From: an uncultured Clostridia bacterium
GTDB lineage: Bacteria; Bacillota; Clostridia; Christensenellales; CAAEEZ01
Assembly (NCBI GenBank): GCA_934365195.1
Contig: CAKRNA010000006.1
Span: forward strand, 72,962 to 136,961
DNA length: 64,000 bases
Direction of reading: 5' to 3'
The notes beneath the pieces are model-generated. The model did not search any database. It had not been told where the DNA came from and saw only the letters and a list, made by a program, of their open reading frames with translations. This document shows positions 939-20,671 of this stretch, one piece after another. Numbering within the stretch: position 1 is the first letter of the stretch; each line of letters begins with the position of its first letter. Position numbers and translations under genes: made by a program.

Positions 939-943
939 TTTGT

Positions 944-1019: not shown

Positions 1020-1097
1020 ATGCCTTAACGATAACTAATATATCATAAAATAGCCGTTGTTTCAACTATTTTAAGGATGTTTTAATAAAATTTTTAT

Positions 1098-2322: not shown

Positions 2323-2329
2323 GTTTTTC

Positions 2330-3232: not shown

Positions 3233-3240
3233 AGTTCACC

Positions 3241-4020: not shown

Positions 4021-4149
4021 TAAAACCTCTTACTTTGTTTTATACCTATAATTATATCATTTTTTAGAATAAAATAAAGCAAAAAATGACATCTAAACCT
4101 TTTTATTTTATTTATATTAAAAAAATTTAATAAAATAATTGAAATTTTG

Positions 4150-4845
4150 TTATAGCGGGCTTAGTTTCGGCTTGTTTTTATCCCTAGGGTAAATCTTGTC
4201 GGTTTTTGCCTCTTTTTTGATAATTACAAGCGACCTATTGTAGTCGGTTTCGGGCAGAGTGAAGTTTTCTACCTCGATAATTTTGGCGTGTAATTTGTTA
4301 AGAGCGTTTTTGGACGCTATAATTTCCTCTTCACAATTACCCTTGTATGCAATAAAAATTCCGCCCACTTTTAGTAGCGGGACAGCGTACTCAATAAGGG
4401 TGTTTAGCGAGGCAACCGCCCTTGCAACCACCACGTCGAACTTCTCTCTAAAATCCTTTTTAGCAGCGTCCTCTACACGAGTGTGGTAAGCGGTGATATT
4501 GCTTAGCCCAAGCAGTTTTACCGTGTCGTTAAGGAAAGTTACCCTTTTATTAAGGCTGTCAATAAGAGTAAAGTCTAGGTCAGGTCGAACGATTTTAAGT
4601 GGTATACTAGGAAAGCCTGCCCCTGCCCCGATATCGCAAACTTTAAGGTTTTTACCGATAAATTTTTGCCCCGAAATGCTGTCTATTAAATGTTTGTCTA
4701 CAAACTCTGTTTCTTCCAAAATCGAGGTTAAATTGCACGTTTTGTTACGTAAAACTATGTTTTGGTAATAATCGTCGAAAAGTTTGTTTTGATTTTCGGT
4801 AATAGTTACGCCAAGCAGCGCCGCTTTTTCAATTAGTTTTTCCAT
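4150..4845 (-). CDS. rsmG: 16S rRNA (guanine527-N7)-methyltransferase
   Basis: GidB-like sequence with SAM motif DIGAGAGFP; sits upstream of parA as in the canonical ori cluster. Confidence 0.9.
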   Translation of the reverse strand: MEKLIEKAALLGVTITENQNKLFDDYYQNIVLRNKTCNLTSILEETEFVDKHLIDSISGQKFIGKNLKVCDIGAGAGFPSIPLKIVRPDLDFTLIDSLNKRVTFLNDTVKLLGLSNITAYHTRVEDAAKKDFREKFDVVVARAVASLNTLIEYAVPLLKVGGIFIAYKGNCEEEIIASKNALNKLHAKIIEVENFTLPETDYNRSLVIIKKEAKTDKIYPRDKNKPKLSPL

Positions 4846-4938
4846 TGTCCGTCCTTTAGTTTTACTATTTCTTTTTATTATTATATCATTTATTTTCCGT
4901 TTTTACAAACTTGTGATATAATAAATCGTGAGGTAATT

Positions 4939-5631
4939 ATGAAACGTATAGGAATAATAGTTGCTATGAAGTCGGAATTTGAGGCTTTGTACGACAAAAT
5001 AGGAGAAAAACAAAAAACCATAACGGTTGGCAGCAGGGAAATTTACCATTACGTAAACGGCACGCTTGATTTGTACGTAACCGATACCGCCGAGGGTGAG
5101 ATACAGGCGGCAATGATGACGCAATACCTAATCACCAAGTTCGACGTGGATATGATTTTAAACTTTGGGCTTTGCGGCTCTTTAAAATCGGAGTTTAAAT
5201 GCAAGGATTTAGTGCTTGTAAAAGAGGTGGTTCACTTTGATTTTGATATTACCGCTCTAAACCCGAATATGAAAGTTGGGCAATATCCTGAAAGGGACGA
5301 GATATTCTTTAAAACCGACGAATTGCTTAGAAAAGAGGTGCTTAACATAGAGAATATCAAGGAAGTAAGGGTGGCATCGTCCGATAAGTTTATCGGGGAA
5401 GAAGGTATGAAACGCAGGCTAATTAGCGATTTTAACGCCGACGTTTGCGAGATGGAAAGCGCAGGAATTACTATCACCGCTTTATCTAATCACGTTCCTT
5501 GTTTGCTAATTAAATGTATATCCGACAATGCCGGTGACGACGCTAAGTTCGAGTTTAGAGATATTGTGAAAACGGGCGTTGAAGAGTACGTGGATTTAAT
5601 CGTAAAACTATTAAAAGTACTACAAAAATAG
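4939..5631 (+). CDS. mtnN: 5'-methylthioadenosine/S-adenosylhomocysteine nucleosidase
   Basis: MKRIGIIVAMKSEFEAL... N-terminus and CEMESAG motif typical of Pfs/MtnN. Confidence 0.85.
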   Translation: MKRIGIIVAMKSEFEALYDKIGEKQKTITVGSREIYHYVNGTLDLYVTDTAEGEIQAAMMTQYLITKFDVDMILNFGLCGSLKSEFKCKDLVLVKEVVHFDFDITALNPNMKVGQYPERDEIFFKTDELLRKEVLNIENIKEVRVASSDKFIGEEGMKRRLISDFNADVCEMESAGITITALSNHVPCLLIKCISDNAGDDAKFEFRDIVKTGVEEYVDLIVKLLKVLQK

Positions 5632-5639
5632 AGGATAAA

Positions 5640-6074
5640 ATGGAAGAATTACAAAGAATTAAATCGTTTACAATAGACCACACAATCCATAAGGAAGGTT
5701 TTTATTTGTCAGGGGTGAGTAACAATATTTTCACCTACGACCTAAGATTCAAAAAGCCAAACGGAGATAATTACGTTCCAATCGCAGCAATGCACACTAT
5801 CGAGCACCTTTTTGCAACGGTGGTTAGGAATAGCGACGTAAAGGAAAAGGTGGTTTACTTCGGGCCAATGGGTTGCAGGACAGGTTTTTATTTGCTTCTT
5901 TTAGGCATTGATAAGGAAGAGGCAAGGGCGCTTACCGTAAAATGTATGGAAAAATGCCTAGAACTCGATTATATCCCGGGCTGCTCTGAAAAAGAGTGCG
6001 GCAACTACAAAGAACACGACTTACAAACCGCAAAAGAGGAAATCACACAGTATCTTAGCGTGTTAAAAGGCTAA
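5640..6074 (+). CDS. luxS: S-ribosylhomocysteine lyase (AI-2 synthase)
   Basis: HTIEH metal motif and GPMGCRTGFY motif; 144 aa; 8 nt after mtnN. Confidence 0.9.
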   Translation: MEELQRIKSFTIDHTIHKEGFYLSGVSNNIFTYDLRFKKPNGDNYVPIAAMHTIEHLFATVVRNSDVKEKVVYFGPMGCRTGFYLLLLGIDKEEARALTVKCMEKCLELDYIPGCSEKECGNYKEHDLQTAKEEITQYLSVLKG

Positions 6075-6110
6075 TCATAATAAGAAATCGCTTTAAAAAG
6101 TTGCAAAAAA

Positions 6111-6137
6111 AGGCTACGAAGGTAGCCTTTTATTTTT
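6111..6137 (+). terminator. Intrinsic terminator of mtnN-luxS
   Basis: AGGCTAC-GAAG-GTAGCCT followed by TTTTATTTTT. Confidence 0.8.
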
Positions 6138-6527
6138 GCTTAAATACCTATAAAAACAATGGTTTTAACGGTTAAAAACTAAAATTTGCGGGGAGAAATG
6201 GTAAAAACGCCTGAAAAACAAAACTAATTTTGCTAAAATAAACCTAAAAAAAATGAGACTAAAAACTACAATAAAATCTTTAAATATATCTTTAACAAAA
6301 CCAAATGTTACCACGTAATATAAATAGTTATAATTTGCTAGTAAACAACGAAAAAAAGAGGCAAATAATAGGTAAGACAAAATATAACCGAATAGAAGGT
6401 ATTATAAATTTTTTAGCCATATAAAGCCTTAGCGTAAAATGTTATTATTTTTCAAAAAACCTAGTGAATAGTAGGAAAAGAGGTGATTTTATTTTACACG
6501 ATAAAAGCAATTAAGCAAAAACACCCT

Positions 6528-6593
6528 GTAAAATGAAGTGCACTCAAAAAGTTAGACTGAAATATAAAACTTTTGGAGTGCATTTTTAAAGGC
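6528..6593. repeat. Left copy of a ~66-bp inverted repeat; it is itself a hairpin (CACTCAAAAAGTT...AACTTTTGGAGTG)
   Basis: About 85 percent identical by eye to the reverse complement of 6970-7036, including the loop sequence and flanks. Confidence 0.7.
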
Positions 6594-6659
6594 ACAAAAA
6601 TTTCAAACGACCGTTGCCGTCGTAGTTAAGGAAACTATAAATTAAAAATTATAAATCAA

Positions 6660-6835
6660 GGAACAGGATATACGGACGAGTATACCGGGACGTATTTTAC
6701 TGGTGACACAACGCATAACGGCTGGGAAAATACTATATCACGGGATATTTATATGATCAATTTGATGTCGCCACGGACAGAAGCAAACTGGAAATTGAAA
6801 CGTGGAGCGGTACTTTCACATTGTCTTTACAATAG
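6660..6835 (+). pseudogene. Possible 3' relic of a protein gene, frameshifted and without a start
   Basis: This segment has higher GC than its flanks. Two frames give protein-like text (GTGYTDEYTGTYFTGDTTHNGWENTISRDIY... then ...QFDVATDRSKLEIETWSGTFTLSLQ*), and a terminator follows. Confidence 0.3.
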
Positions 6836-6906
6836 TTACCGAAAAGAACTATGATTTGTTATTAAGAGAGAATAGAATTCTCGTCATTCGCTCCGATATA
6901 AGCTAA

Positions 6907-6932
6907 GCGCCCTTAAACGGGTGCTTTTTTTT
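6907..6932 (+). terminator. Intrinsic terminator inside the IR-bounded element
   Basis: GCGCCC-TTAAAC-GGGTGC followed by T8. Confidence 0.7.
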
Positions 6933-6969
6933 GCAAGGATTCGATTTTCTAAACGCTGGTCCCTTTTTT

Positions 6970-7036
6970 GCCATTAAAAATGCACCTCCAAAAGTTTTAC
7001 ATTTCTGTCCAACTTTGGGGGAGCACTTCATATTTT
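6970..7036. repeat. Right, inverted copy of the ~66-bp repeat; may also terminate the minus-strand lipoprotein gene
   Basis: Reverse complement aligns with 6528-6593; hairpin CTCCAAAAGTT...AACTTTGGGGGAG. Confidence 0.7.
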
Positions 7037-7093
7037 GGTAGTTTTATTTATTTTTTATCTTTACTAGATTTTAATAATTTAGGTAGCCGTCAA

Positions 7094-7801
7094 TTATGAA
7101 ACGTTAATAGGCACAAGCAAGTGTGCTTTCTCATTTGATACGCCGTTTGTAAGTTCAATATCCAAGTAAGTTTTTCCACTTTGTATTCCGGCGGTATCAA
7201 TTTTTATAATTAATTCCATCAAAATATTGCCGTCCGGTCTTGTTTTGGTTTCAACACGTATGTCTCCGGCTGAGTATGTTTGTCCGTACTTATCCTTTTC
7301 ATGCCTAACGTTAATTATATTTCTATCAAGGGGTACAATAACCCAAAATAGATTATCTGCAGTTAGCAAATTATCATTTAACTTTATTTTTAATTCGGCA
7401 ATTCCGCTATTTATTACTAAATCTTTTGGATTATTATCTTTATCGTAATTAGCAAAAGATTGACCGTAAACGATATTTCCAAGTTCCACTTTCACATAAG
7501 CGTCTTTGTCTTGCATACTGAAAGTGTAAGTATCCGTACCCGTTTTGCTCACGTCATTACCATTATATGTAACCTTTTTTATATATTTATTAGTGTTGGT
7601 TACGGTTACAATAACGTTTATTAATTCGTATTCTGTTGCTTCTGATTTTACGTTTACCATACAATCATCGGGCTTTTCAACAAAAATGTTATATTTTTTA
7701 GGTGGTGGCGGATCGTTATTTGCACACGACGTTAGAACAATTCCACCGATAATTACTACTAATATTAGGCTTAGCGCCACAAAAAATTTTTTATTTTTCA
7801 T
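7094..7801 (-). CDS. Lipoprotein of unknown function
   Basis: Signal peptide with lipobox (IVLTSC); 235-aa ORF in otherwise ORF-poor DNA. Confidence 0.65.
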   Translation of the reverse strand: MKNKKFFVALSLILVVIIGGIVLTSCANNDPPPPKKYNIFVEKPDDCMVNVKSEATEYELINVIVTVTNTNKYIKKVTYNGNDVSKTGTDTYTFSMQDKDAYVKVELGNIVYGQSFANYDKDNNPKDLVINSGIAELKIKLNDNLLTADNLFWVIVPLDRNIINVRHEKDKYGQTYSAGDIRVETKTRPDGNILMELIIKIDTAGIQSGKTYLDIELTNGVSNEKAHLLVPINVS

Positions 7802-8344
7802 AATACTCTCCTTATGGTGATTTGCACCATTCCTACTTAAATTTTAATACATACCTGCCTTAAAATCAATAATTCATAAATTTTTTATCGATTTATATAT
7901 AGTAAATCGTGCATTTTAATATAGAAAAACCTATATTTATTTCAATAATTATTTGTTGTAAAACCTTTGCAAAACGAATAGATTAACCGTAATTTGTATG
8001 ATAAACTTTTTTAATAATAAATATTTTTATTATGTAAACTAGAATAAATTAAAAAATATTTGTGTTAATTAAATTGATTAAATAAAATATCCAAAATAAC
8101 GAAATTGTAAAAAAATATAAATGCGTTTTTTCGAGGAGCAAAGATATATTTTGTAAATGTGGAGAAAAGGTGTATTTAGCGCTGGTTTTAACTATAAAAA
8201 AATTTTCAAAACAATAAAACTCAAGTCAAAGATAAAAAATTGCTAAATGTTATTCCAAATAGAGCGTTCTGCGTAAAAAATTGTATTATAATACTGCAAA
8301 TTTTTCACGAAAAAACCAGTAAATAAAGTAAATTTCAACAAATC

Positions 8345-8440
8345 AGAGCGGTTTAGAGGCAATTTTATTAAAAAATAGAGCATTTCAGAGGCGATTTTAT
8401 TGCAAATGAGATATTTTAGCGTGATTTAATTAAAAAATAA
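8345..8440 (+). repeat. Three tandem 32-bp iteron-like units (AGAGCnnTTnAGAGGCnATTTTATT...)
   Basis: Units start at 8345, 8377 and 8409. Units 1 and 2 match at 24/32 positions counted by eye; unit 3 is more diverged. Confidence 0.6.
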
Positions 8441-8830
8441 CCATATTTAAACTAATATTTGGTGAAACTGATTAAAAAAAACATAATAATTTATAAGTAA
8501 AAAGTGCTGTGAAACAAAATAGTAAATTTATGCAAATTATAGCATATAAATACAAAAAATATTAGTAAATATTCAACAATATTCATTATTTTATTAAAAA
8601 AAGCAAATATTTATAAATAAAATGAATATTAAATAATATGTTAAACAATTTTAGGTATTTTTTCAAGGAGCAAACATTAAATTTTATAGCAAATTTTTCA
8701 AGGAGCAAATTTGGACGATTATTTTTTGCAAAATTTATTGTATAAAACATTGTCAAATATACACAATAAAGCCGCAAATATACATAATTATTGAATAAAT
8801 ACGGAATGTATGCATAAATAATGTATAAAT

Positions 8831-8846
8831 TGTTCAACGTGAAACG
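8831..8846. other. parS-like site TGTTCAACGTGAAACG (2 mismatches to TGTTCCACGTGAAACA)
   Basis: Direct read; compared with the B. subtilis 16-bp parS consensus. Confidence 0.5.
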
Positions 8847-8863
8847 ATGCCGAAGTTTACGAA

Positions 8864-8879
8864 TGTAAAACGTGAAACA
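8864..8879. other. Degenerate parS-like site TGTAAAACGTGAAACA (3 mismatches; right half perfect)
   Basis: Direct read; lies 33 bp from the previous site. Confidence 0.35.
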
Positions 8880-9384
8880 TAATATTTTAACACAATATAG
8901 TATTTGATATATTTAGTTAAATAGAAACAGTTTATGTTGATAGGTATTTCGTGTTTTCTGTAAAAAAAATTATCAAAGTATTAAAGCAGGCAATACGGAA
9001 ATGGTTAAAAATAGGTATTCTAACAATGAGTTCTGTTTGTAAAGCATAATTAAAACTCTTCGAGCCACAAAATATAAAAGTTTAGCCGCAAAAAGCAAGT
9101 TAAATTACGTTTAATCCGTTTAAAATTGTAAATGAAAGGAGTTTTATAATTAAATTAGTTGTAATTGCATAAACCTTAGGCTATGACTATCAAAACCGTT
9201 TTTATTTTGTGATTCGTTTGAATGGAGGAAGTAAGGGCTTATGATAATAAACGTTAAAAAGGTGTAAGTAATATGCCTAGAAGAATTTTATGCTGTATTT
9301 TAAGTTAGGAATTGTTCGAAATATTTTTCTGACAGACATTATAAATTCTATATAAAACAGCAAAAAAATACTAAAAAATCTAAT

Positions 9385-9400
9385 TGTTCCACGTGAAACA
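9385..9400. other. Perfect parS centromere site TGTTCCACGTGAAACA
   Basis: Exact match to the Bacillus-type 16-bp palindromic ParB binding site; parB and parA are encoded about 6 kb away. Confidence 0.8.
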
Positions 9401-9469
9401 AAAATAAAAAATGATAATAAAGCCAAGTGATTTTTAGAAAAATAATTTAAGTTTTTAAACGCTTGAAAT

Positions 9470-9509
9470 TGTGGAAAACTAAACTTTTTGTGGATAACTT
9501 TGTGGATAA
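9470..9509 (-). promoter_or_regulatory. Cluster of three DnaA boxes in the same orientation (TGTGGAAAA, TGTGGATAA, TGTGGATAA = reverse complement of TTATCCACA)
   Basis: Boxes at 9470-9478 (1 mismatch), 9489-9497 (perfect) and 9501-9509 (perfect). Confidence 0.7.
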
Positions 9510-9704
9510 GTATGTAAAAATATAGAAAAATAAGTGTAATTTGTGATAAAACGCTGTTTTAAAGGGATAGCAACAATCGGGAGTAAAGACTTGTTTTGCC
9601 TAAATATTAAGTAGTGAAAGTTAAGGTTTTTGCTGCAATCGATAAAGCCGGTTATGTTTAATACGTAGTAGTATAGATTTGAATACCTAAGCGGTTGTGG
9701 GTGG

Positions 9705-9975
9705 AAAAAATTTTTCTAAATGAGGTTTTAAAATATTTATAAAAAACGTGTTTTAATAAAGAATAGGATATTTTTGGCAATATTTTTAAAAAATCTTTGT
9801 TTTTATAAAAACTTAGTAATGTCGGGAAGACGCTAATAGAAAAATTTTCTAAAGGAAGTTTAAATTTTTTTATATGAATCGTGTTTTTTATAATAAAAAT
9901 AGGAAGATTTTGGCAATATTTCTAAAAAAATCATTGTTTTTGTAAAAATATACTATTGTCCTGCAGAGAGTTAAA
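9705..9975 (+). repeat. Two tandem ~135-bp AT-rich units; more degenerate copies continue to about 10250
   Basis: The unit AAAAATTTTCTAAAnGAnGTTT...CGTGTTTT...ATAGGAnATTTTGGCAATATTT...TTGTTTTT is repeated at 9705 and 9840, roughly 75 percent identical by eye. Confidence 0.6.
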
Positions 9976-10444
9976 AAATTTTTTGTTAAAAATACACAAA
10001 TAGACGCTATAATACGGTCAAAAAAATGTTTTTAGTAAAATAAATAAACTTGCAGCAAGACGTTTAAAAAGTGTGTTTTATAACAAAATAAATAAAATTA
10101 CGTTATTACCATTAAAAGATTGCGTTTATTTTATAAAATATACGAATAATTATATAAGACTTTTTCGTAATAAAATATATAAATCTACCTCATAATACAC
10201 TAAAAATCGCTGTTTTATTTAATATAATGGATAAAAATGGGGCGAAAAAACTAAAAAAAGGTTTAGTAACAAGATGAAGATAAATGCTACATGAAGAAAA
10301 AAGTAATTATTTAGTAAAATGAACGAAATGTCTTATGCGCCAGGAAAAACTACCTTGATAATATGCTGATTCGTTGATTGCACGAACCACCGGCTATACT
10401 TGAAAGAGAAGGATTAAAAATATTCTGATTTTAAAAGTTTTTTG

Positions 10445-10535
10445 TTAAAATTATAGTGTTTAGTTAAATTTCGTACAATATTTATGCAATTTGGTATATG
10501 CCGAACACGGTTTAGCATTTTTTTAGTAAGCAAAA
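10445..10535 (+). repeat. Copy a of a ~80-90-bp repeat family (TTAGTTAnATTTCGnACAATATTTATGCAATT...TATATnCCGAA...)
   Basis: Aligns with 10703-10785. Partial copies lie at 10621-10680 and about 9301-9350. Confidence 0.6.
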
Positions 10536-10702
10536 GTTTTAATTAGACCGATACCGGTTTAAAAAATATTTTTTTTACTATTTTTTTTGTTATAATTATT
10601 GTATTTACTTAAATTGCTAGGAATATGTATAATATTTTCTATATGCCGGATATGTCTTAGAAGTTTTCTAGTAAGCCAGATGCAATATTTGGCAGAATAG
10701 TG

Positions 10703-10785
10703 TAAAATTATTGTTATTAGTTATATTTCGAACAATATTTATGCAATTCCTATATCCGAATACGCTTTAAGATTTTGTTTGTAAT
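10703..10785 (+). repeat. Copy b of the same repeat family
   Basis: About 80 percent identical by eye to copy a; offset 258 bp. Confidence 0.6.
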
Positions 10786-12760
10786 TGGTTGTTATATTTC
10801 AGTATCTATGGATCTATAATAACCTTTTTGTCTAGATTTAAAATGCCGCATTATTTAAACATTAAAAGATAGTTGCTAATTAGTATTTAGTGAAAATAAT
10901 TAAACTAACACAAATTTAGATGCTGCTAGCGTGCGTTTAGTAGGATAATTTAGTGATATAACGATATTTTGATAAAAAATTAGGGGGTATTGTTAAAAAT
11001 GCACCAGTTTGCTTGTTTGTGGCTTTTTGAATGGCAATATATTTAACGGTATATTTAAATAACAATGTTTAGAGGTTATTTTAATATTTAATTAAAAATA
11101 GGAGAATGGGTAAAAATTAGATTTAATTCAAGTAAAATCTAAATATTTTTGCAATAACAGGGATAAAATATATTATTTTAGAGTTAAAAAGTATTTAATA
11201 TGAAATTTTTTAAATATTAAAATATTTATTATTTTATATTAGAATAGGTTTTTAATCTATTTTTCTTTAATAAAGTGATTATCTTGATAATAAATACTAG
11301 AATATTTGCTACGTTAAATTATAAATTAGTAAAAAATTTTTTAGGCGAAAAGAGGTAATTGCTTGTTTTTAATTATTACAAATTAAAAATTTTTCTATAT
11401 TGCTATGTTAATGTAGTATTCAATAGTATGCAATAAAAACTAATAGAATTTTATTATAAATGTATAAATATACGGCGAAATCTTATTTATTGCATATCTA
11501 TACAAATTAAAAAAGCAAAAATTTATATAAATATGTTATAAACGTTTGCTCACAAGATAAAGCGGTTAAACTGCCGTTTACAGATATTCTTTATTCGGAA
11601 TTTTTTAATAAGTATTTTTAAATATAATTTTATATGAAAAAATGTTTTTGTTCAGTTTGTTTAGCGTTTGATAATTTTTGGTTAAAACTTTATTTTCGTA
11701 TTCGTTTTTATTTTTCTATTACTTATATCTGCATGCATAGTAAAACAATAAGTAAATTTAGTTGAACCGATTCAAGCAGGTTGCTTTGTCAGTATGATTC
11801 GTCAATTTTTAGGAAAAGGAGTGGTGAGGCTTAGGGGGAAACATTTTTTTCTAATTATTATGAAGCGAAGATGTTAAAATTAAATGGAACAACAGTTTCA
11901 ATTTAAAAAGATAAAGGAATAAGGACATTAAATTCTACTGCTACTTAGGTGGAGTGCAACAGTGGATACCTAAAAATTGCAAAGTTGAAACGTTTCAAGT
12001 TAATTAGAATACCGGTATTATCTCGAATGCCAAAGACTAATTTGATGAAACGTGATTGCTTGAATGTTTTAAATAATCTATATAAATTTAGCAGTACGAA
12101 GTTGTAAAAAAACCTCTATTAGTAAAAAGTCGAATTGTTTTAAGTTGCGTTTATTATATCTCTACGAGGAGAATTACGGTGTATTTTTTGGGAAAAGATT
12201 AAAAAGAATCGAGGTCGAAAAAACTGAACAAACGTTTGGTTTTTATTGACTAGATAAGATTTGTTTTCATTAACGTGGGAGGATTTGGTTTAACATATTA
12301 AATTTTTCTAATTACAAATAAAAGTAGTTATTTCAGTGCTTGTTTAACAAAAAATTGAAATATAAATAGTTAAGGAATACAATAGTTAGAATTATTAGGG
12401 GCAATTTTTTTCCTTACATATATAAATCAGTGGCAGGAAAGTTAGGGTTTAATCGGTTCACCATTATTGAATGCAGCAAGTATTTGTTTGATGCTATTTA
12501 AAAAGGGGAAAATCAACAATAATATCGGAAAAAAATAATTAAAATTGTCAATATGGCGTGGAAAAAGTTCATAATTGTGATAAAAACGGCGGTTTGCGTA
12601 GATATTTTTTATTTTGGGTTGGTAAGCGCTGTGAAACTGGTAGCAAATATTTGCAATTTTTGTAAAACGTAAGAAAATATGGCAGAAGAAAATGATTCGA
12701 AAGAAAATAAGAAAAAGAGTAGATGATAAGATGAGAAGAAGAGAGAAAGGAAAGGGGGAA

Positions 12761-12945
12761 ATTAGCCAAGGGAAAAGGCGTAAAAAAGGTGATTTGCGGG
12801 CAAAAAGCGAAAAATAGTGTGAGAAGTTTGTATCGAGGGAATCAAATTAGGAAATTGAGGGGGAGGAATGAAGTAGAGGCTTAAAACATAAAACGGGCGG
12901 TGTTAGGTTGAATATAAAACGGGCGTGGTTTAGCGTGGATATAAA
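12761..12945 (+). repeat. Left purine-rich bracket segment of the small-gene island
   Basis: It shares the exact 23-mer GGTGATTTGCGGGCAAAAAGCGA (12788-12810) with 17974-17996. It also shares colinear AAGGGGGAAAT and GTGGATATAAA blocks. Confidence 0.65.
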
Positions 12946-13031
12946 GCGGACGAGGGTAAAATTTACAAGGTGAAAAAGGAAGAATAAAAAATTTTTTAGG
13001 AAGGCGGCGGTTATCTAAAGATAAAAAAATC

Positions 13032-13059
13032 TTGACAAAAAAAGGGGATATGATATAAT
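13032..13059 (+). promoter_or_regulatory. Near-consensus sigma-A promoter (TTGACA-N16-TGaTATAAT)
   Basis: TTGACA at 13032-13037 and TATAAT at 13054-13059 with a TG extension; no CDS for the next ~465 nt. Confidence 0.65.
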
Positions 13060-13524
13060 GAAAGTAGGTGGCAAGGGTTTTCCTGATTAACCGATTTGAA
13101 AATTGTTTTATTGATTTTGAATTTAGTTTAAATTTTTTCTTGTATAGTATTAAAAAAGTTTAGAAAGTTTTGCAAGTTATTTTATTTTGGTTTTTTGTTT
13201 TTAATTTAAGCGTAAAAAGTTGGTTTGGCGTTTTGAGAATTAAAAATATGGTTGAATTTGAACGAATTAGTTGTTTTAGTAAGCCTGTTTGGTGCGGCTT
13301 AGCATCATTTTGGGGCATGAAAGGATTTAGGTTAAAGCCGTGAATTGTTTTTGGAAAATGGGCGGTTTGAAAGTAAGTAAGATTTTAAAGTATTTAAAAT
13401 GTTTGGTTAAACGGTTTGTGGCGTTTTATTTAAAAATTTGATTATCGTATTTGATAAGTATCACGAAAAAAAAGTAATCCTATTAAATAGGTTTTGAAAA
13501 TTAAGTAATAAAAGGAGGAAGGAT

Positions 13525-13818
13525 ATGGCGTTATTTGACAAATCTTATCTTGATAAAGAAAGAAACGTTATGGTGTTTGAAGTAAATAGGTACATGCTTG
13601 AAGACGAAAGCGAAGAAGAAAGAAAAACCGGTATGGCAGGGGTTCTAATTTATGAATTTAAAAAAATGTTTCCTGAAAAAAAGGAAGAGTTGGCAAAAGT
13701 TGGAGCAAATATAGCAGAACTTGAAAACGGAGACCCAGATGACGCAGAAAATACTTTAACGTTAAAAAGTATAAACAAGTTTGCATACGAATTATTTATG
13801 GTATTAAAAGATGAATAA
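13525..13818 (+). CDS. Small acidic protein, array A copy 1 (family not recognised)
   Basis: RBS AAAGGAGG about 6 nt upstream; MALFDKSYLDKERNVMVFEV...; 4 tandem paralogs. Confidence 0.75.
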   Translation: MALFDKSYLDKERNVMVFEVNRYMLEDESEEERKTGMAGVLIYEFKKMFPEKKEELAKVGANIAELENGDPDDAENTLTLKSINKFAYELFMVLKDE

Positions 13819-13896
13819 ACGGTTTAGTAAATATAGTTTGAAAAATTAGTTATTACAAAAAATATGAAAAAATATCTGATAAAAAGGAGGCACGAT

Positions 13897-14187
13897 ATGG
13901 CGTTATTTGACAAATCTTATTTAGACGAAGAAAGAAACGTTATGGTGTATGAAATCAATAAGCACACTCTTGAAGACGAAAGCGAAGAGGCTTGCAAAAA
14001 CGGTATTGTAGCGGCTTTAATTTTTGAACTTAAAAAAATGTTTCCTGAAAAAAAGGAAGAGTTAACAAAAATTAGAGCAAATATAACAGAACTTAAAAAC
14101 GGGGACCCAAATGATGCAGAAAATACTTTAATGTTAAAAAGTATAAATAAGTTTGCGTACGAATTATTTATGGTATTGAAAGATTAA
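13897..14187 (+). CDS. Small acidic protein, array A copy 2
   Basis: The start is moved to the MALFDKSY ATG, which is preceded by AAAGGAGG. It is closest to copy 1. Confidence 0.75.
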   Translation: MALFDKSYLDEERNVMVYEINKHTLEDESEEACKNGIVAALIFELKKMFPEKKEELTKIRANITELKNGDPNDAENTLMLKSINKFAYELFMVLKD

Positions 14188-14279
14188 TAAACGGTTTAGT
14201 AAAGATGGCTTGAAAGAATTAGTTATTACAAGAAATTAAAAAAATATGAAAAAAATATCTGATAAAAAGGAGGCACGAT

Positions 14280-14573
14280 ATGGCGTTATTTGACAAATCT
14301 TATTTAGACGAAGAAAGGAATGTTATGGTGTATGAAGTAGGTAGGTACACCCTTGAAGATATGGGGGAAGAAGAAAGAAAGGTTGGTATGGTATCCTCAT
14401 ATATCGACCGAATAATTGAAAAATATCCTCAAAAAGAAGAGGAATTAAGAAAAATAAATAAGTACGTAAATGAACTAATGCAATCGTGTTATGAAAATGT
14501 AGAAGAATTGTTAATGCTTTATGGTATGGATAAAATTTTAGAAATGCTTTACGAAGTTTTACGAAATGAATAA
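14280..14573 (+). CDS. Small acidic protein, array A copy 3 (most diverged C-terminal half)
   Basis: Same N-terminus MALFDKSYLDEERNVMVYEV; RBS AAAGGAGG. Confidence 0.75.
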   Translation: MALFDKSYLDEERNVMVYEVGRYTLEDMGEEERKVGMVSSYIDRIIEKYPQKEEELRKINKYVNELMQSCYENVEELLMLYGMDKILEMLYEVLRNE

Positions 14574-14665
14574 AGCAGAAGACTTAGCGTTTTTAAATAG
14601 AAAAGGAAAAGCAATTTTATTAAAAAGGGTTTTGATAAAAAAAGTAATAAAAGGAGAAGAAAAAA

Positions 14666-14995
14666 ATGGCATTATTTGACAAATCTTATTTAGACAAAGA
14701 AAGGGACGTTTGTGTATTCGAAGTAGATAAGGAAAAACTTGAAGACGTAAGCGAAGAGGCTTACAAAGACGGCATTGTAGGTGTTTTGGTTGGCGAACTT
14801 ATGGATATGTTTCCAAAAAAAGAGGACGAACTTCTAAAAATCACTACCAAAATAAATAAACTTAAATATAGAGAGCCTAGGGATGCAGAAAACACTTTAA
14901 TCCTAGAAGGTATCAATAGTTTTGCTGAGCAGTTGTTTATGGTTCTGAAAGACTGTAAAACAAGAAAAAAGCAAAAGTTTTTGGGGAGAAATTAA
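14666..14995 (+). CDS. Small acidic protein, array A copy 4 (basic C-terminal extension)
   Basis: MALFDKSYLDKERDVCVFEV...; RBS AAGGAGAAG. Confidence 0.75.
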   Translation: MALFDKSYLDKERDVCVFEVDKEKLEDVSEEAYKDGIVGVLVGELMDMFPKKEDELLKITTKINKLKYREPRDAENTLILEGINSFAEQLFMVLKDCKTRKKQKFLGRN

Positions 14996-15099
14996 GGAAA
15001 TAAAACCCCCGCAAAATGAAGAAAAAGTAGAACACGATAAAATCGTTAAAATAATTGAAAAGAGAAAATGGAAATAACAAAAAACAGGAGGAATTTGTT

Positions 15100-15489
15100 A
15101 TGATTATAATAGAAGAACATCACGTACAAGGGGACGGCCCAACCGTACAAGAGATACGAGCAATGGAAAGAGCAGAGAAAATGAAAACAGAGCCGGAGAA
15201 CGTGGTAGATTTGGGCAAGTGGGGAACGCAAGCGATAAATATAATGGAAGAGGGAAACAAGGAACTGTATATGAAACTGAAAAAAGAGATGAAGTTAGTG
15301 CCGTTCCTATTAGACCTGAACGAAACGTGCTTGCAGTCGTTTATAAAAATGAAAGAACAAATGTGGCCAAAAGCGACAGGCGACTTTTTGACGGACTGGC
15401 AGAACAGAGAGGCAGTAGTGAGGACGATAGACGAAATCCTACTGAACGACGTAATAATCCCTGCAGTAATGGTGGGTAAAAAGTATTAG
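15100..15489 (+). CDS. TnpV-like protein (transposon/ICE-associated small protein family)
   Basis: The start is set at the ATG after AGGAGG (MIIIEEHH...). The pattern LGKWG...LY.KL...L.FLLDLNE...W....R......DEIL.NDVI resembles Tn4451 TnpV as I remember it. Confidence 0.5.
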   Translation: MIIIEEHHVQGDGPTVQEIRAMERAEKMKTEPENVVDLGKWGTQAINIMEEGNKELYMKLKKEMKLVPFLLDLNETCLQSFIKMKEQMWPKATGDFLTDWQNREAVVRTIDEILLNDVIIPAVMVGKKY

Positions 15490-15706
15490 AAATATAAGAA
15501 AGAGGAATGAAATGTAAGTAAAGCCTAATAGCGTGGCATTATAGTGTGTTTTTGATATTAAATTAAGTGGATATGGCAAGAAAACATTGCTAAAGCGAAA
15601 AGGTCGCCTTATCAAAAAGGAATATGTCTAAGACTAATAAATCTATTAGGAGTATTTGATATTAGACAGAAAAACTTGTTGAGAAACTGTTGCGCTTTGC
15701 TAAAAA

Positions 15707-15734
15707 TTGACTTTTGGTGAAAAATTAGTATAAT
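15707..15734 (+). promoter_or_regulatory. Promoter of array B copy 1 (TTGACT-N16-TATAAT)
   Basis: Read directly; repeated with a 496-bp period. Confidence 0.6.
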
Positions 15735-15762
15735 AAGAAAACAAATGAGAGGACGATGCCTT

Positions 15763-16104
15763 ATGATGAAAATGTTGATACAACTTGACGAAGAAAAAGT
15801 TTTGAGCGATGAAAAGTACGCACTTGAAGATATGTGGAGAGTAATAGATAAGCAGTTTGCCGGAGAATGCGACAAGGAAGTACAGCCAGACGGCTCAGTA
15901 TTGTATTCGGGTAATCCAAACAAAGATTATTATACTCGTATAAATTTGGCGTATTATTCATTAAAGAGAAAGAAGTGGTTTGCCGAATATTGTAAACGTT
16001 GGGTATGGTATGATAATGATTACAATGAATCAATGCCGTTGGACGAGATAGATGTTATAGCAGAAGAAAAAAAAGACAATCCGCTGTTTGCAACAGATAA
16101 GTAG
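15763..16104 (+). CDS. Small protein, array B copy 1 (family not recognised)
   Basis: The start is set at MMKMLIQLDEEK, 9 nt after GAGAGGA. The ORF-track start at 15745 would lie about 4 nt from the predicted TSS. Confidence 0.7.
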   Translation: MMKMLIQLDEEKVLSDEKYALEDMWRVIDKQFAGECDKEVQPDGSVLYSGNPNKDYYTRINLAYYSLKRKKWFAEYCKRWVWYDNDYNESMPLDEIDVIAEEKKDNPLFATDK

Positions 16105-16202
16105 CGAATTGAAAAAGAAATTCAAAATCTAATAAGTTTAATAAAAGTTTTTTATATCAAACAGAAGAAAATTGCTAAGAAACTGTTGTGTTTTGCGAAA
16201 AA

Positions 16203-16230
16203 TTGACTTTTGGTGAAAAATTAGTATAAT
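16203..16230 (+). promoter_or_regulatory. Promoter of array B copy 2
   Basis: Identical TTGACT...TATAAT, 496 bp after the copy 1 promoter. Confidence 0.6.
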
Positions 16231-16258
16231 AAGAAAAAAAATGAGAGGACTATGCCCT

Positions 16259-16600
16259 ATGATGAAAATGTTAATACAACTTGACGAAGAAAAAGTTTTG
16301 AGCGATGAAAAGTACGCACTAGAAGATATGTGGAGAATAATAGATAAGCAGTTTGCCGGAGAATGCGACAAGGAAGTGCAGCCTGATGGTGCGGTTTTAT
16401 ACTCAGGTAATCCAAACAAAGATTATTTTACTCGTATCGGAGTGGCTTATGTATATTTGAAAAGAAAGAAGTGGTTTGCAGAATATTGTAAACGTTGGAT
16501 ATGGTATGATAATGATTACAATGAATCAATGCCATTTGATGAAATAGATGTTTTATCTCGCCAAAGGGAAAAGAATCCGCTGTTTGCAACAGATAAGTAG
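16259..16600 (+). CDS. Small protein, array B copy 2
   Basis: Paralog; its 3' ~190 nt are identical to copy 4 except for one codon. Confidence 0.7.
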   Translation: MMKMLIQLDEEKVLSDEKYALEDMWRIIDKQFAGECDKEVQPDGAVLYSGNPNKDYFTRIGVAYVYLKRKKWFAEYCKRWIWYDNDYNESMPFDEIDVLSRQREKNPLFATDK

Positions 16601-16698
16601 CGAATTGCAAAAGAAATTCAAAATCTAATAAGTTTAATAAAAGTTTTTTATATCAAACAGAAGAAACTTGCTGAGAAACTGTTGCGCTTTGCTAAAAA

Positions 16699-16726
16699 TT
16701 GACTTTTGGTGAAAAATTAGTATAAT
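16699..16726 (+). promoter_or_regulatory. Promoter of array B copy 3
   Basis: Identical TTGACT...TATAAT, a further 496 bp downstream. Confidence 0.6.
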
Positions 16727-16754
16727 AAGAAAACAAATGAGAGGACGATGCCTT

Positions 16755-17096
16755 ATGATGAAAATGTTGATACAACTTGACGAAGAACGAGTTTTGAGCG
16801 ATGAAAAGTACGCACTAGAAGATATGTGGAGAGTAATAGATAAGCAGTTTGCCGGAGAATGCGACAAGGAAGTACAGCCTGACGGCTCGGTCTTGTATTC
16901 GGGCAATCCAAACAAAGATTATTATACTAAAATAATGTTAGCCTATATGAGTTTAAGTGATAAAAAATGGTTTGCGGAATACTGCATTAAATGGATATGG
17001 TATGATAATGATGACAATGAGGAGTTACCGTTTCAAAATATTGACGTGCTGGGAAAGGAAAGAAAGAGAAACCCCTTATTTGCAATAGAGCAGTAA
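16755..17096 (+). CDS. Small protein, array B copy 3 (most diverged C-terminal half)
   Basis: Paralog; its N-terminal half is nearly identical to copy 1. Confidence 0.7.
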   Translation: MMKMLIQLDEERVLSDEKYALEDMWRVIDKQFAGECDKEVQPDGSVLYSGNPNKDYYTKIMLAYMSLSDKKWFAEYCIKWIWYDNDDNEELPFQNIDVLGKERKRNPLFAIEQ

Positions 17097-17288
17097 CGGA
17101 ATGTAAAAGAAAGGCTAAGTTTAATAAGCAATATGCCTAATAAAAAACAAGATGTTCAAGCCTTATCGAAAATGAATATATCTAAGACTAATAAATCTAT
17201 TAGGAGATTTTATATCAAAAGAAAAAACTTGCTAAGAAACTGTTGTGTTTTGCGAAAAAATACTAAAAAAAAGAGAGGATTATACCTT

Positions 17289-17630
17289 ATGATGAAAATG
17301 TTGATACAACTTGATGAAGAAAAAGTGTTAAGCGATGAAAAGTACGCACTTGAAGATATGTGGAGAGTAATAGATAAGCAGTTTGCCGGAGAATGCGACA
17401 AGGAAGTGCAACCTGATGGTTCGGTTTTGTACTCAGGTAATCCAAACAAAGATTATTTTACTCGTATCGGAGTGGCTTATGTATATTTGAAAAGAAAGAA
17501 GTGGTTTGCAGAATATTGTAAACGTTGGATATGGTATGATAATGATTACAATGAATCAATGCCATTTGATGAAATAGATGTTTTATCTCGCCAAAGGGAA
17601 AAGAATCCGCTGTTTATAACAGATAAGTAG
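17289..17630 (+). CDS. Small protein, array B copy 4 (own promoter replaced)
   Basis: The start is set at MMKMLIQL. The ORF-track N-terminal extension from 17133 runs through the repeat-unit leader. The TTGACT...TATAAT block is missing upstream. Confidence 0.7.
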   Translation: MMKMLIQLDEEKVLSDEKYALEDMWRVIDKQFAGECDKEVQPDGSVLYSGNPNKDYFTRIGVAYVYLKRKKWFAEYCKRWIWYDNDYNESMPFDEIDVLSRQREKNPLFITDK

Positions 17631-17890
17631 CAAATTAAAAAAGCAGGCAAAAAACAAAAGCGAATAAACTTTTTAATAACGTGGCTAAAAGGCTGTAAAA
17701 TAAAGAGAAACAAACGTTAAAAAGGCAAAGCAATAATTGTAATTAAAGGTAAACGACGGTGACAAAATTGTTAGTAAACAGTTGGGTTACAGGTCGTTTT
17801 ATTTTTGATTAGCATATTACGATAAGCGTAATTATCGTTGTACGACGTAGAAAAAATAAAAAAAACACGATGAAAAGTAAGGTAATTAAA

Positions 17891-18111
17891 GAAGGGGGAA
17901 ATGAATAATTAGAGCAGAAGAGAAGAAAAAAAATAGGAAAGTAGCCTAGGATAAAGGTTTGAAAAAGGAAAAGGGTGATTTGCGGGCAAAAAGCGACTAA
18001 AAAAGGAAAGAGGAATCCAAAAATAAAGGACTTTAATGAAAGATTGCGGAGCATTACTAAATTTTAAAGCCGCAAAACCCTAGGTAAACGGCGATAAGTA
18101 GTGGATATAAA
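17891..18111 (+). repeat. Right purine-rich bracket segment (rpmH upstream region)
   Basis: Exact 23-mer at 17974-17996, plus AAGGGGGAAAT and GTGGATATAAA blocks colinear with 12761-12945. Confidence 0.65.
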
Positions 18112-18134
18112 AAGTAATATGTCTTAATTTTTGT

Positions 18135-18163
18135 TTGACATAGCACTTTCTTTCATATATAAT
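18135..18163 (+). promoter_or_regulatory. Consensus sigma-A promoter of rpmH (TTGACA-N17-TATAAT)
   Basis: TTGACA at 18135-18140 and TATAAT at 18158-18163, 46 nt before the rpmH ATG. Confidence 0.75.
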
Positions 18164-18208
18164 TTAATGGTTATTATAAAATACAATTATAAGCGGAGGG
18201 CTAAATAA

Positions 18209-18343
18209 ATGAAAAGAACTTATCAACCAAAGAAGAGACAAAGAAACAAGGTACACGGATTTAGAAAGAGAATGAGTAGCAAAGCGGGCAGAAACGTAAT
18301 CGCTAGAAGAAGAAAAAGAGGTAGAAAAGCACTTAGTGCCTAA
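18209..18343 (+). CDS. rpmH: 50S ribosomal protein L34 (below the ORF-track length cut-off)
   Basis: [44 protein letters not shown]; RBS GGAGGG; upstream of rnpA. Confidence 0.95.
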
Positions 18344-18354
18344 TCGATGGGGAT

Positions 18355-18693
18355 ATGCAAAAACAATATAGATTAAAAAAGAACGCTTCGTTTAATTACA
18401 TTTACCGTAACGGCAAAAGCGTATCGAATAAATATATGGTTCTTGTGTATGTAAAATCCTATCAATCGATAAAGGTAGGCTTTTCGGTAAGTAAAAAAGT
18501 TGGAAATAGTGTGGTGAGAAACCACGTGAAGAGATTGATGAGAGAGAGCGTGAGAGTGCTTATTCCTAATATGGACAAGCATACGCATTACGTTTTCGTG
18601 GCAAGACCGCAGGTGACCGGCCTAACGTTTTGCCAGCATCAAGAAAAAATGAAAGACTTGCTTACCAAAGCCTCGCTATACGTGGAACAATGA
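18355..18693 (+). CDS. rnpA: Ribonuclease P protein component
   Basis: Basic 112-aa protein with the RNR-type motif ([12 protein letters not shown]); rpmH-rnpA synteny. Confidence 0.9.
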
Positions 18694-18932
18694 AAAGGCT
18701 GCTGATATATTTAGTAAGGGGCTACCAAAGGTTTTTCTCCCCGTTACTTGGCAAAAACTGTGTATACACTCCAACGTGCTCTACTTATATGATAGAGGCG
18801 ATTGAAAAAAGAGGCGTAATTACGGGCGTAATGCTGGGAGTGTGGCGAATACTTAGGTGCAATCCGTTTTCTAAAGGTGGCTTTGATCCCGTAAAAGATA
18901 ATTTGAAAGGAAAAGCAAAATGGTTAATTTAA
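18690..18932 (+). CDS. yidD: Membrane protein insertion efficiency factor YidD
   Basis: The start is set at the ATGA overlap with the rnpA stop. Sequence: [18 protein letters not shown]...[15 protein letters not shown]...RCNPF. Confidence 0.85.
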
Positions 18933-19951
18933 CAAACGTATTTATGCTTGCACAGACGGGCAACTTAATAGGTGACTGGCTATACGGTTTAAGTAATAGC
19001 ATTGGTAACTTCGGTTGGACGGTAGTGGTGTTCACTATTATTCTAAAACTTGTTACCTCTCCTTTTGATATATGGCAAAAGGTGGTAATGAGGAAGAATA
19101 ACAACGCAATGAAAAGAATGAAACCGGAACTTGAAAAATTGCAAAAGCAATACGCTAACAACCAACAACTTTTAGCGGAAAAGCAAATGCAACTTTACAA
19201 GAGGGAGCATTTTTCAACGCTTGGCGCATGCCTACCTATGATTATCACGATGGTAATATTCTTCGTGGTGTTCGCAGGGTTTAATGCAACCGTTCAATAT
19301 CAAAACAAAGTAGTGTTTTTGGAACTTCAACAAACCTACAACGTGGCAGAGCAAGAGGCAAACGCCGACGCAACGCTAACGACGGACGAGGCAAAACAAC
19401 AATATATTAACGAAAAAGTACTGGAAAAATACGAAGGCGAAATAAGAGCAAAACAAGGCTTTTTGTGGATAGAGAATATCTTTATGCCGGACACTTGGTC
19501 TAAGCCTATCCCTGCATGGGGTACGTTCATCGGAACGGGTATGGGCAAACTAAATATTCAAATTCCGGGGCTGGAATCTAGGGAATACCAAAAGGTTATG
19601 AGCCCTATTATCGCTAAGTACAACACACGTTGGAACGGATATTTAATTCTTCCTATCCTTGCGTTTGTGCTAAACGTGGTTACCAGCAAGATGATGCAAA
19701 AGTCTAACCCGCAAATGCCTCAAGCAGGTAGCGCAGAAATGCAAAAAGCAAACCAACTGAATATGAAAATGATGCAATGGCTAATGCCTATTATGATGTT
19801 GGTTTTTGCAGTTTTGTATAGTTCGGCGTTCACCTTGTACATGTTCGTATCGGCGCTAGTTACTACGTTGTTCCAACTAATTACGAATTTGGCATTTAAG
19901 ATTATAGACAAAAAAGCCGAGGAAAAGAAACTTTCCACGACGTACAAATAA
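18920..19951 (+). CDS. yidC: Membrane protein insertase YidC/Oxa1 family
   Basis: Multi-TM protein with YidC-like core motifs; canonical position after rnpA/yidD. Confidence 0.85.
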
Positions 19952-19960
19952 GGAGAGACG

Positions 19961-20671
19961 ATGGCTAGAACTATAGAAATAGAGGCATCTACCGTTGAAG
20001 AGGCAACTAAGCAAGGTATTGAAGAGTTGCAAGCAAGAAAAGAGGACGTAACGGTAGAAGTTCTTAAAGAGGGAGGCTTGTTCAGTAAAGCAAAGGTAAG
20101 GCTTACGGTAAGTGACGTGTGCGAAAACGTTGAAAACTTCGTGAATACCTTGCTTGAAAAAATGGGCATTACCGCAACTTGTAAGGCTGAAAGGCTAGAA
20201 GATAAGATCAGCGTTAAAATCGAAGGAAAGGATAGCGCAAAAGCAATAGGCTATCGTGGAGAAGCGCTTGACGCAATACAATATCTTGCCGTAATAGAGG
20301 CAAACAAGGGCAGCGAAAAGGATTACGTAAAAGTGGTGGTAGACGCTGAAAACTACCGTGAAAAACGTAACGTCACCCTAAGCAGCCTTGCTAAAAAACT
20401 TGCCTACAAGGCGTACAAAACGAGCAAAAAAGTGGAACTTGAACCTATGAATCCTTTTGAAAGAAGGATTATCCACACGGCGCTGCAAAGCAATCAATAC
20501 GTAGAGACGGTTAGCGAGGGCGAGGGCATCGACAGGCACGTAGTTATTGTGCCTAAGAAAAAGACCGACGACAACGTAAGTTTGGATATTTTAGGAGCAA
20601 GCAACAGCAATTTCAAGAAAAACGGACCGAAAAAAATGAGAAGTTTCGGATATTCTAGAAACAGGTTTTAG
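19961..20671 (+). CDS. jag: Jag/KhpB RNA-binding protein (Jag_N, KH, R3H)
   Basis: R3H region PMNPFERRIIHTALQ; canonical position after yidC. Confidence 0.85.
   Translation: MARTIEIEASTVEEATKQGIEELQARKEDVTVEVLKEGGLFSKAKVRLTVSDVCENVENFVNTLLEKMGITATCKAERLEDKISVKIEGKDSAKAIGYRGEALDAIQYLAVIEANKGSEKDYVKVVVDAENYREKRNVTLSSLAKKLAYKAYKTSKKVELEPMNPFERRIIHTALQSNQYVETVSEGEGIDRHVVIVPKKKTDDNVSLDILGASNSNFKKNGPKKMRSFGYSRNRF

Follow-up and report, generated by a model that had tools for sequence, protein, structure and literature searches.

Tandem VapW and candidate Zeta-antitoxin genes without their toxins in an island upstream of rpmH in an uncultured Clostridia bacterium

We have analyzed a 64 kb stretch of DNA, hereafter the window, from an uncultured Clostridia bacterium of the order Christensenellales (GenBank assembly GCA_934365195.1, contig CAKRNA010000006.1, positions 72,962 to 136,961), and within it an island of nine small plus-strand genes lying directly upstream of rpmH. 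As a first-pass annotation had recorded, these comprise four paralogs encoding acidic proteins of about 97 amino acids (family A; A1 to A4), one gene resembling tnpV, and four paralogs encoding proteins of 113 amino acids (family B; B1 to B4). Scans of domain libraries also agree with that annotation in finding no recombinase, toxin or enzyme domain in the block. It could name neither family, yet profile and structure searches identify the 113-residue proteins as VapW, the antitoxin of the VapWD type II toxin-antitoxin (TA) system (Gilep et al., mBio 2025, PMC11980593; PDB 9KAN). Family A is likely to be the antitoxin of a clade of Zeta toxins, and in neither case is the toxin gene present; statements on toxin absence cover the window, which is a part of the genome. 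The island also contains fragments of a conjugative element. Its features, in window coordinates, are as follows.

12701-12818, plus strand: left flanking direct repeat (DR-L), purine-rich, with its 23-nucleotide core at 12788-12810
12888-12957, plus strand: tandem repeat of 27 nucleotides in 2.6 copies (ATAAAACGGGCG...), Tandem Repeats Finder (TRF) score 73, upstream of promoter P_A
13011-13059, plus strand: palindrome and promoter P_A, the promoter being TTGACA-N16-TGnTATAAT at 13032-13059 (12/12 match to consensus)
13525-13818, plus strand: A1, 97 amino acids, isoelectric point (pI) 4.6, antitoxin-like
13897-14187, plus strand: A2, 77% identical to A1
14280-14573, plus strand: A3, deeply divergent, with 42-48% identity to the other copies and synonymous divergence (dS) of 1.3-1.9
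14666-14995, plus strand: A4, 109 amino acids, the first 96 of which are 97% identical to the antitoxin-position gene of a conjugative element (L021)
15015-15489, plus strand: relic of the 5' part of that element's giant gene, containing the TnpV-like coding sequence (15100-15489, 129 amino acids)
15574-15637, plus strand: first of two relics from the 3' end of the giant gene, lying shortly before B1 and paralogous to 17106-17192 (90% identity)
15707-16104, plus strand: B1 unit, with promoter TTGACT-N16-TATAAT at 15707-15734 and a VapW-like coding sequence at 15763-16104 (113 amino acids)
16203-16600, plus strand: B2 unit, with promoter at 16203-16230 and a VapW-like coding sequence at 16259-16600
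16699-17096, plus strand: B3 unit, with promoter at 16699-16726 and a VapW-like coding sequence at 16755-17096; the most divergent of family B (dS 0.7-2.0)
17106-17192, plus strand: second relic from the 3' end of the giant gene, covering its stop codon and the ~22 codons before it, and preceding B4
17289-17630, plus strand: B4, a VapW-like coding sequence 97% identical to B2, its own promoter deleted
17879-18006, plus strand: right flanking direct repeat (DR-R), with its 23-nucleotide core at 17974-17996
18135-18163 and 18209-18343, plus strand: rpmH promoter and rpmH, housekeeping and outside the island; homology with the sister species (L011) and with L012 resumes at 18129

A profile of 42 members of family B matches the VapW antitoxin (chain 9kan_B) over residues 6-89, with E = 5e-9 and 39.3 bits. 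The AlphaFold2 model of the family has a predicted local distance difference test score (pLDDT) of 94.6, and its secondary structure elements run in the order β1-α1′-α1-β2-β3-α2-α2′-β4-α3. This matches the topology of VapD and VapW, a modified ferredoxin (Cas2/VapD) fold with a C-terminal α3 (PMC11980593). When the model was searched with Foldseek the top matches were the VapW chains 9kan_D and 9kan_B, with template modeling (TM) scores of 0.65-0.67, followed by the VapD structures 3ui3 and 6zn8. Position 7, equivalent to the catalytic aspartate of VapD, is Q, K, A, R or S and never aspartate in all 42 members; at the position of the VapD catalytic serine, on a tentative alignment, 30 of the 42 have serine.

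The genomic setting of the relatives is in keeping with this identification. A vapD gene lies 3-40 nt downstream of the family-B gene in the relatives L003-L010 and in 28 of 34 metagenome loci (apparently intact in 26), and the encoded protein matches VapD (9kan_A) with E = 6e-19. A Campylobacter fetus plasmid shows this pairing as well, the neighbor being annotated there as VapD. Within the window there is no vapD at any position, and the genes found here are thus VapW homologs and not a VapWD system. We conclude that family B is VapW, the catalytically dead antitoxin of VapD/Cas2 fold of VapWD systems; its members are predicted to bind VapD.

Outside the species the nearest relative of family B (L025-L027) shares 80% identity, and is followed by a vapD truncated to about 43 codons. 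In L025/L026 (positions 1-6500) a type II-A cas9-cas1-cas2-csn2 locus is found about 2 kb upstream of this vapW, and a gene for a TnpX-like large serine recombinase is close by. A solitary vapW is also present in an unrelated Clostridia lineage (L068-L070, 10001-15428), about 2 kb from a jag-yidC-yidD-rnpA-rpmH-dnaN cluster, and is a second case of a toxin-less vapW near origin-region genes. The gene of 235 codons that adjoins it in L068 is unrelated to VapD and to the 235-residue lipoprotein of the window. A phage origin was considered and rejected: no relative of family B was found among 2.9 million viral contigs, and BFVD yielded no structural match.

Family A is very small. A first search gave 9 clusters, and there are 9 representatives at 50% identity among 1.84 billion proteins. 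The members in the window have pI values of 4.5-5.3. No match was found in Pfam, PHROGs or NCBIfam, nor in the PDB using profiles of 12 or 16 members, and the family is absent from the plasmids of PLSDB. Scans of both families with Pfam, PHROGs, NCBIfam and PADLOC gave nothing other than TnpV; matches to DUF7399 and PDC-M02B were weak, below threshold and confined to single members, and were discarded.

It is the position of its genes in intact elements that points to the role of family A. In the conjugative element (L021-L024) a protein 97% identical to A4 (P0060) is encoded by a gene that overlaps the start of a gene for a Zeta_toxin protein of 318 amino acids by 8 nt. A distant homolog (P0065, 36% identity) has the same arrangement with an overlap of 11 nt (L030). 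The sister species has one family-A domain only, joined in the same protein to a Zeta domain (PF06414, E = 1.6e-15); identity of this Zeta domain to the Zeta of the element is 37%. The fusion (7189-8364 in L011) has 391 amino acids, and its Walker A motif is degenerate, GGQMGVEKE compared with GGQPGAGKS in the element; it may be a snapshot of toxin inactivation. It resembles EzeT of E. coli, in which antitoxin and toxin are fused in cis and the toxin is cis-inhibited. No Zeta gene follows any of A1 to A4 or occurs elsewhere in the window. Family A is likely to be a previously undescribed family of small proteins that act as antitoxin to a clade of Zeta toxins. Its N-terminal sequence MALFD recalls the β1 motif of VapD, and we considered whether family A might be a VapD-like toxin. 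This was rejected, because the predicted structure is a β-hairpin with helices, there is no match to VapD, and the conserved partner is Zeta, with family A in the antitoxin position.

The element represented by L021 carries genes for a type IV secretion system pilin, ParA, SSB, a VirB4-like ATPase, an Xre regulator, a PrimPol-like protein and an SNF2/methylase protein of 2241 amino acids, the product of the giant gene. The window retains the antitoxin-position gene (14666-14952, 94% identity in DNA), after which 3.26 kb of the element are missing, a stretch with Zeta, PrimPol and ~570 nt from the start of the giant gene. The two sequences are again alike at 15071-15480 (85%), the section that holds the TnpV open reading frame (ORF). 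At the protein level identity to the element is 97% for A4, 85% for TnpV and 65-68% for the giant-gene fragments; the relic at 17106-17192 is 86% identical to the giant gene over 36 nt and 68% over 22 amino acids (E = 0.007). Because TnpV and the stretches before B1 and B4 match parts of the giant gene, we read the island as a relic of a conjugative element riddled with deletions. The relics before B1 and B4 further suggest, from their placement, that in the donor elements vapW may have come after the giant gene. No recombinase is found in or next to the island, and there is no TnpX-type recombinase, relaxase or transposon end.

The TnpV-like protein passes the gathering score of Pfam PF14198 (30.6 bits against 27, E = 3.5e-7, residues 31-119). 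In L021 a TnpV ORF of 127 codons (13573-13956) lies in the +1 frame inside the uninterrupted helicase/methylase ORF of 2241 codons (12999-19724). Substitutions in pairwise comparisons of the window, L011 and L021 concentrate at the third codon position of TnpV (31 of 54, 29 of 51 and 16 of 29), and it is because of this that we take TnpV to be the frame under selection. Its placement within the giant ORF of L021 could mean that the two genes overlap, that there is a frameshift site, or that the giant ORF was called wrongly.

The island is restricted in distribution. It is present in this species (L001, L019, L066 and L067) and in reduced form in the sister species, and is absent from L013-L018. 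Comparison of synteny shows that in four more distant relatives ychF-argS lies directly upstream of rpmH, with no island. The GC content is 0.329, compared with 0.412 in the flanking core. The suggestion in the first-pass annotation of a foreign block with the footprint of a mobile element is therefore upheld by the absence from distant relatives, the GC content and the 85-97% protein identity to the conjugative element. The composition of the arrays varies between strains of the species.

L019: two A genes, TnpV and two B genes
L066: at least three A genes, TnpV and three B genes
L067: TnpV and one B gene
L001: four A genes and one B gene, possibly an assembly collapse

The strains differ in more than copy number, for L019 and L066 each carry a VapW of a distant clade that is not found in the window. 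The arrays have tandem periods of 372-386 nt and 496 nt (TRF and repeat search), and the A array of the window contains three deep lineages. Among the family-B paralogs dS is 0.13-2.0 and the ratio of nonsynonymous to synonymous substitution (dN/dS) is 0.08-0.23; dN/dS is 0.21-0.41 among the family-A paralogs and 0.05 between A4 and the copy in the L021 element. The paralogs are old, and the substitution patterns show all of them to be under purifying selection.

The flanks of the island share an exact 23-mer, noted previously, that occurs at 12788 and 17974 only, where the chance expectation is 0. The 88 nt upstream of it are also related (local alignment score 30 against 18.3 ± 2.7, with none of 500 dinucleotide shuffles reaching 30). 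From the 23-mer to the promoters, GTGGATATAAA included, the similarity is at chance level, 424 of 500 dinucleotide shuffles scoring at least as well. Since similarity is confined to the 23-mer and the 88 nt upstream, the real feature is a direct repeat of about 120 nt. Of the longer colinear bracket that had been proposed this repeat stands, extending beyond the 23-mer, while the section from there to the promoters does not, and we reject GTGGATATAAA both as a DnaA box shared by the flanks and as a colinear block. Within the 23-mer is a perfect 12 bp palindrome TTTGCGGGCAAA (12793-12804 and 17979-17990), which might bind a protein or act as a core for recombination. The repeat is kept in the conspecific strain L019 with one mismatch in the core, and is missing in L011. 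No empty site with a single copy of the repeat was found.

Each copy of the repeat lies 140-220 nt upstream of a perfect σ70 promoter. Both promoters, at 13032-13059 and 18135-18163, had been predicted in the first-pass annotation, and on inspection both match consensus at 12 of 12 positions; they are alike in the consensus hexamers only. A palindrome of 14 bp, TTATCTAAAGATAA (13011-13024), abuts the −35 element of P_A, and sequence conservation in L011 and L019 extends over the palindrome, the −35 and −10 elements and the +1 region. By this conservation P_A is the predicted native promoter of the operon of family A and TnpV. The palindrome and the 27-nt repeat ATAAAACGGGCG may be regulator-binding sites, and there is no regulator gene within the island. 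TTATCTAAAGATAA was not found in L021, and its assignment as operator of the Xre regulator of the element was rejected. Between P_A and A1 there is an untranslated leader of 465 nt (13060-13524), of which only the promoter-proximal part resembles L011; it contains no Rfam match and no convincing ORF. B1, B2 and B3 each have their own TTGACT-N16-TATAAT promoter, that of B4 having been lost through a short deletion, and between B4 and rpmH there is no predicted terminator on the plus strand. Promoters and ribosome-binding sites are conserved among strains, and P_A also between species. In L011 and L012 conservation from 18129 onward takes in the rpmH promoter.

These data bear on several ways of explaining the island. 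In the first-pass annotation the rpmH upstream region with its promoter was taken to have been duplicated, with the cassette inserted between the copies so as to exploit the promoter context. There is indeed a direct repeat with an identical core of 23 nt that flanks the island, each copy upstream of a perfect promoter, and it could be a footprint of attL/attR type. However, the similarity stops short of the promoters, and P_A is conserved in L011, which has no repeat; for these reasons the rpmH promoter region is not duplicated, the two promoters being unrelated and the repeated segment being the purine-rich ~120 nt alone. Moreover, the homology of L011 and L012 upstream of rpmH begins only at 18129, so that DR-R is not ancestral rpmH upstream sequence there, and B units have promoters of their own. 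We regard this explanation as highly improbable. Still less credible, to the point of being very remote, is that the toxin-less VapW proteins serve as counter-defense decoys that bind Cas2 or other proteins of VapD fold and so disturb CRISPR adaptation or another defense. VapW has the Cas2/VapD fold and binds its Cas2-like partner through the surface that AcrVA5 uses on Cas2 (PMC11980593), and the L025/L026 relative is 2 kb from a type II-A locus as noted. That is a single co-location, however, set against a linkage of the family that is overwhelmingly to vapD, and there are neither phage or viral homologs nor PADLOC hits.

A further proposal is that the island is the inert and decaying junk of an old integration, whose genes persist because they are harmless and whose copy number reflects neutral slippage. 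In its favor are the loss of toxins, transfer machinery and recombinase, the remaining fragments of the giant gene, the lost promoter of B4, the Zeta domain of L011 that looks inactivated, and the truncated vapD of L025, where decay is in progress. Yet TnpV and the eight array genes are all intact, with dN/dS of 0.05-0.41 even though dS is as high as 2.0; promoters and ribosome-binding sites are conserved in strains (and P_A in species); and the arrays have grown, not contracted, taking in divergent members. We therefore consider an inert relic unlikely. The antitoxins might alternatively be one half of split TA systems, serving unlinked VapD and Zeta toxins elsewhere in the same genome. The 64 kb inspected are part of that genome, and multi-copy VapWD loci with shuffled antitoxin and toxin genes, such as A-A-T-T, are on record (PMC11980593). 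Against this, the gene that directly follows the antitoxin gene is that of the toxin in L003-L010 and in 28 of the 34 metagenome loci, no toxin gene lies in the 13 kb upstream or the 46 kb downstream of the island, and L011 and L025 show decay of the toxin in situ. Such a division seems to us distinctly unlikely.

The explanation that we favor, and think probable, is that the island consists of toxin-less antitoxin arrays within the eroded relic of a conjugative element, and that these neutralize the Zeta and VapD toxins of mobile elements in trans, as an anti-addiction or immunity function. One or several related elements would have lodged upstream of rpmH in this gut species of Christensenellales type and then eroded, with loss of all the transfer, replication and toxin genes. 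What has been retained is the operon of four family-A paralogs with TnpV, four VapW genes of which three have their own promoters, and scraps of the giant helicase/methylase gene. Family A occupies the antitoxin position of ε/ζ-type modules in the intact elements. The arrays would be expressed constitutively from the strong predicted promoters, and their products would bind and neutralize the Zeta and VapD toxins of incoming or resident elements, sparing the cell from post-segregational killing or toxin activation. The divergent paralogs may cover different variants of the toxins. Growth and shrinkage of the arrays could occur by unequal crossing-over between units of 372-496 nt, and by recombination with incoming elements through shared segments. 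An earlier guess of immunity or anti-defense cargo thus pointed in the right direction, in that both families are antitoxin-type partners, of VapD and Zeta; the function itself would be as set out here.

A number of points weigh against this explanation. There is no recombinase or clear att site by which the island could be tied to an integration, and in L011 the A-Zeta/TnpV part is present and the flanking repeat is not. With 64 kb of the genome in view, cognate toxins could lie elsewhere on the same chromosome. The antitoxin role of family A is read from gene position, and there is no detectable similarity of sequence or structure to ε (PF08998) or to the C-terminal domain of PezA. The AlphaFold2 model of family A is poor (pLDDT 64), and because of this the search of its fold with Foldseek is uninformative, returning only noise. 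Neutralization of Zeta by family A and binding of VapD by these copies of VapW are predicted, as is expression, from consensus promoters. Some of the differences in copy number among metagenome assemblies, for example that of L001, could be the result of repeat collapse.

The surroundings of the island are also of some interest. From the start of the window the order is the end of dnaN, parB, parA, rsmG (minus strand), a methylthioadenosine nucleosidase gene, luxS and the gene for the 235-residue lipoprotein. There follows an ORF-free stretch of ~5.7 kb with GC of 21-31%, and then the nine small genes; downstream of the island is rpmH-rnpA-yidD-yidC-jag-mnmE. This order (1-20000) is atypical for Firmicutes, with dnaN and rpmH-rnpA-yidC-jag-mnmE on the same strand 18 kb apart and parB-parA-rsmG inverted between dnaN and the rpmH cluster. 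The ORF-free stretch (7802-13500) has a strongly positive GC skew (0.18-0.46) and contains three DnaA boxes in 40 nt (9470-9509: TGTGGAAAA, TGTGGATAA, TGTGGATAA, plus strand), and it may be oriC or a DnaA-binding region displaced from dnaA. It is 90-94% conserved in a conspecific strain, compared with 97-99.7% for the flanking genes, and alignment to L011 is limited to 8508-8848. A search of 6000-19000 with Rfam found no RNA family. No further relics of the element were found elsewhere in the window, where the matches to ParA and Xre are ordinary chromosomal genes.

How does the island compare with systems already described? Family B shares with VapWD the sequence, fold, topology and loss of the catalytic aspartate, and its relatives lie directly upstream of vapD; it differs in that four vapW genes are present with no vapD, B1 to B3 have promoters of their own and the composition of the array depends on the strain. 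For VapWD, tandem duplications and multi-copy loci enriched in gut bacteria have been noted, in a census that began from VapD and in whose main text the words "orphan" and "solitary" are absent (PMC11980593). Because the census was centered on VapD, a VapW without vapD would escape it. With ε/ζ and PezAT there is a likeness in that intact elements encode a small acidic family-A protein upstream of, and overlapping, the Zeta_toxin (PF06414) gene, and a gene for an Xre-type regulator precedes the family-A gene, a parallel to ω-ε-ζ. In the window, in contrast, the Zeta gene has been deleted and the antitoxin-like gene is present four times, with no detectable similarity to ε or PezA. TnpV is a marker of integrated elements of clostridia and has been postulated to be Xis-like (PMC3158075). 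The island's 129-residue protein belongs with that of mobilizable transposons of Tn4451/Tn4453 type by the PF14198 match, while TnpX, relaxase and transposon ends are missing; in the L021 element, unlike Tn4451/Tn4453, TnpV lies out of frame within the ORF of 2241 codons.

The concept of anti-addiction modules and orphan antitoxins is treated in earlier papers (PMC7354431, PMC7192599, PMC12548467). The island resembles such modules in having toxin-less chromosomal antitoxin genes homologous to those of TA systems on mobile elements, as in the 97% identity of A4 to the element copy. It departs from them in placing two unrelated families side by side, as tandem, diverged and strain-variable paralogs whose neutralizing activity is predicted. 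The chromosomal ccd, in its relation to the ccd of the F plasmid, is an example of an anti-addiction module. Orphan immunity-gene arrays of polymorphic toxin, type VI secretion and contact-dependent inhibition systems, including the acquired interbacterial defense clusters of Bacteroidales, guard against toxins delivered by other cells. By analogy the island looks similar, with tandem strain-variable small genes of toxin-neutralizing type that lack their toxins, remnants of mobile elements and occurrence in gut bacteria. In contrast to those arrays, the proteins here belong to families of intracellular TA antitoxins, and the array comes without a recombinase.

The ideas of orphan antitoxins and of anti-addiction are established, and clear natural examples are few and mostly single genes. 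What is new here is the occurrence of two unrelated antitoxin families as tandem, strain-variable arrays in the relic of an element beside rpmH, together with VapW genes without vapD and a candidate family of Zeta antitoxins. A4 has a near-identical partner on an identified conjugative element in which the toxin is still present, and related genomes show stages of toxin loss, from the intact pair through a fused or degenerate toxin and a truncated toxin to the toxin gone. The locus thus lends itself to a direct test of whether antitoxins are gathered on chromosomes as immunity against the toxins of mobile elements. We would put forward, as a possibility held only tentatively, that it is a dedicated "antitoxin repertoire", origin-proximal, constitutive and variable between strains, which would be maintained and renewed by capture from invading conjugative elements and would disarm addiction or abortive toxins. 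If that were true, the repertoire would be the intracellular counterpart of the orphan immunity-gene arrays that are directed against interbacterial toxins.

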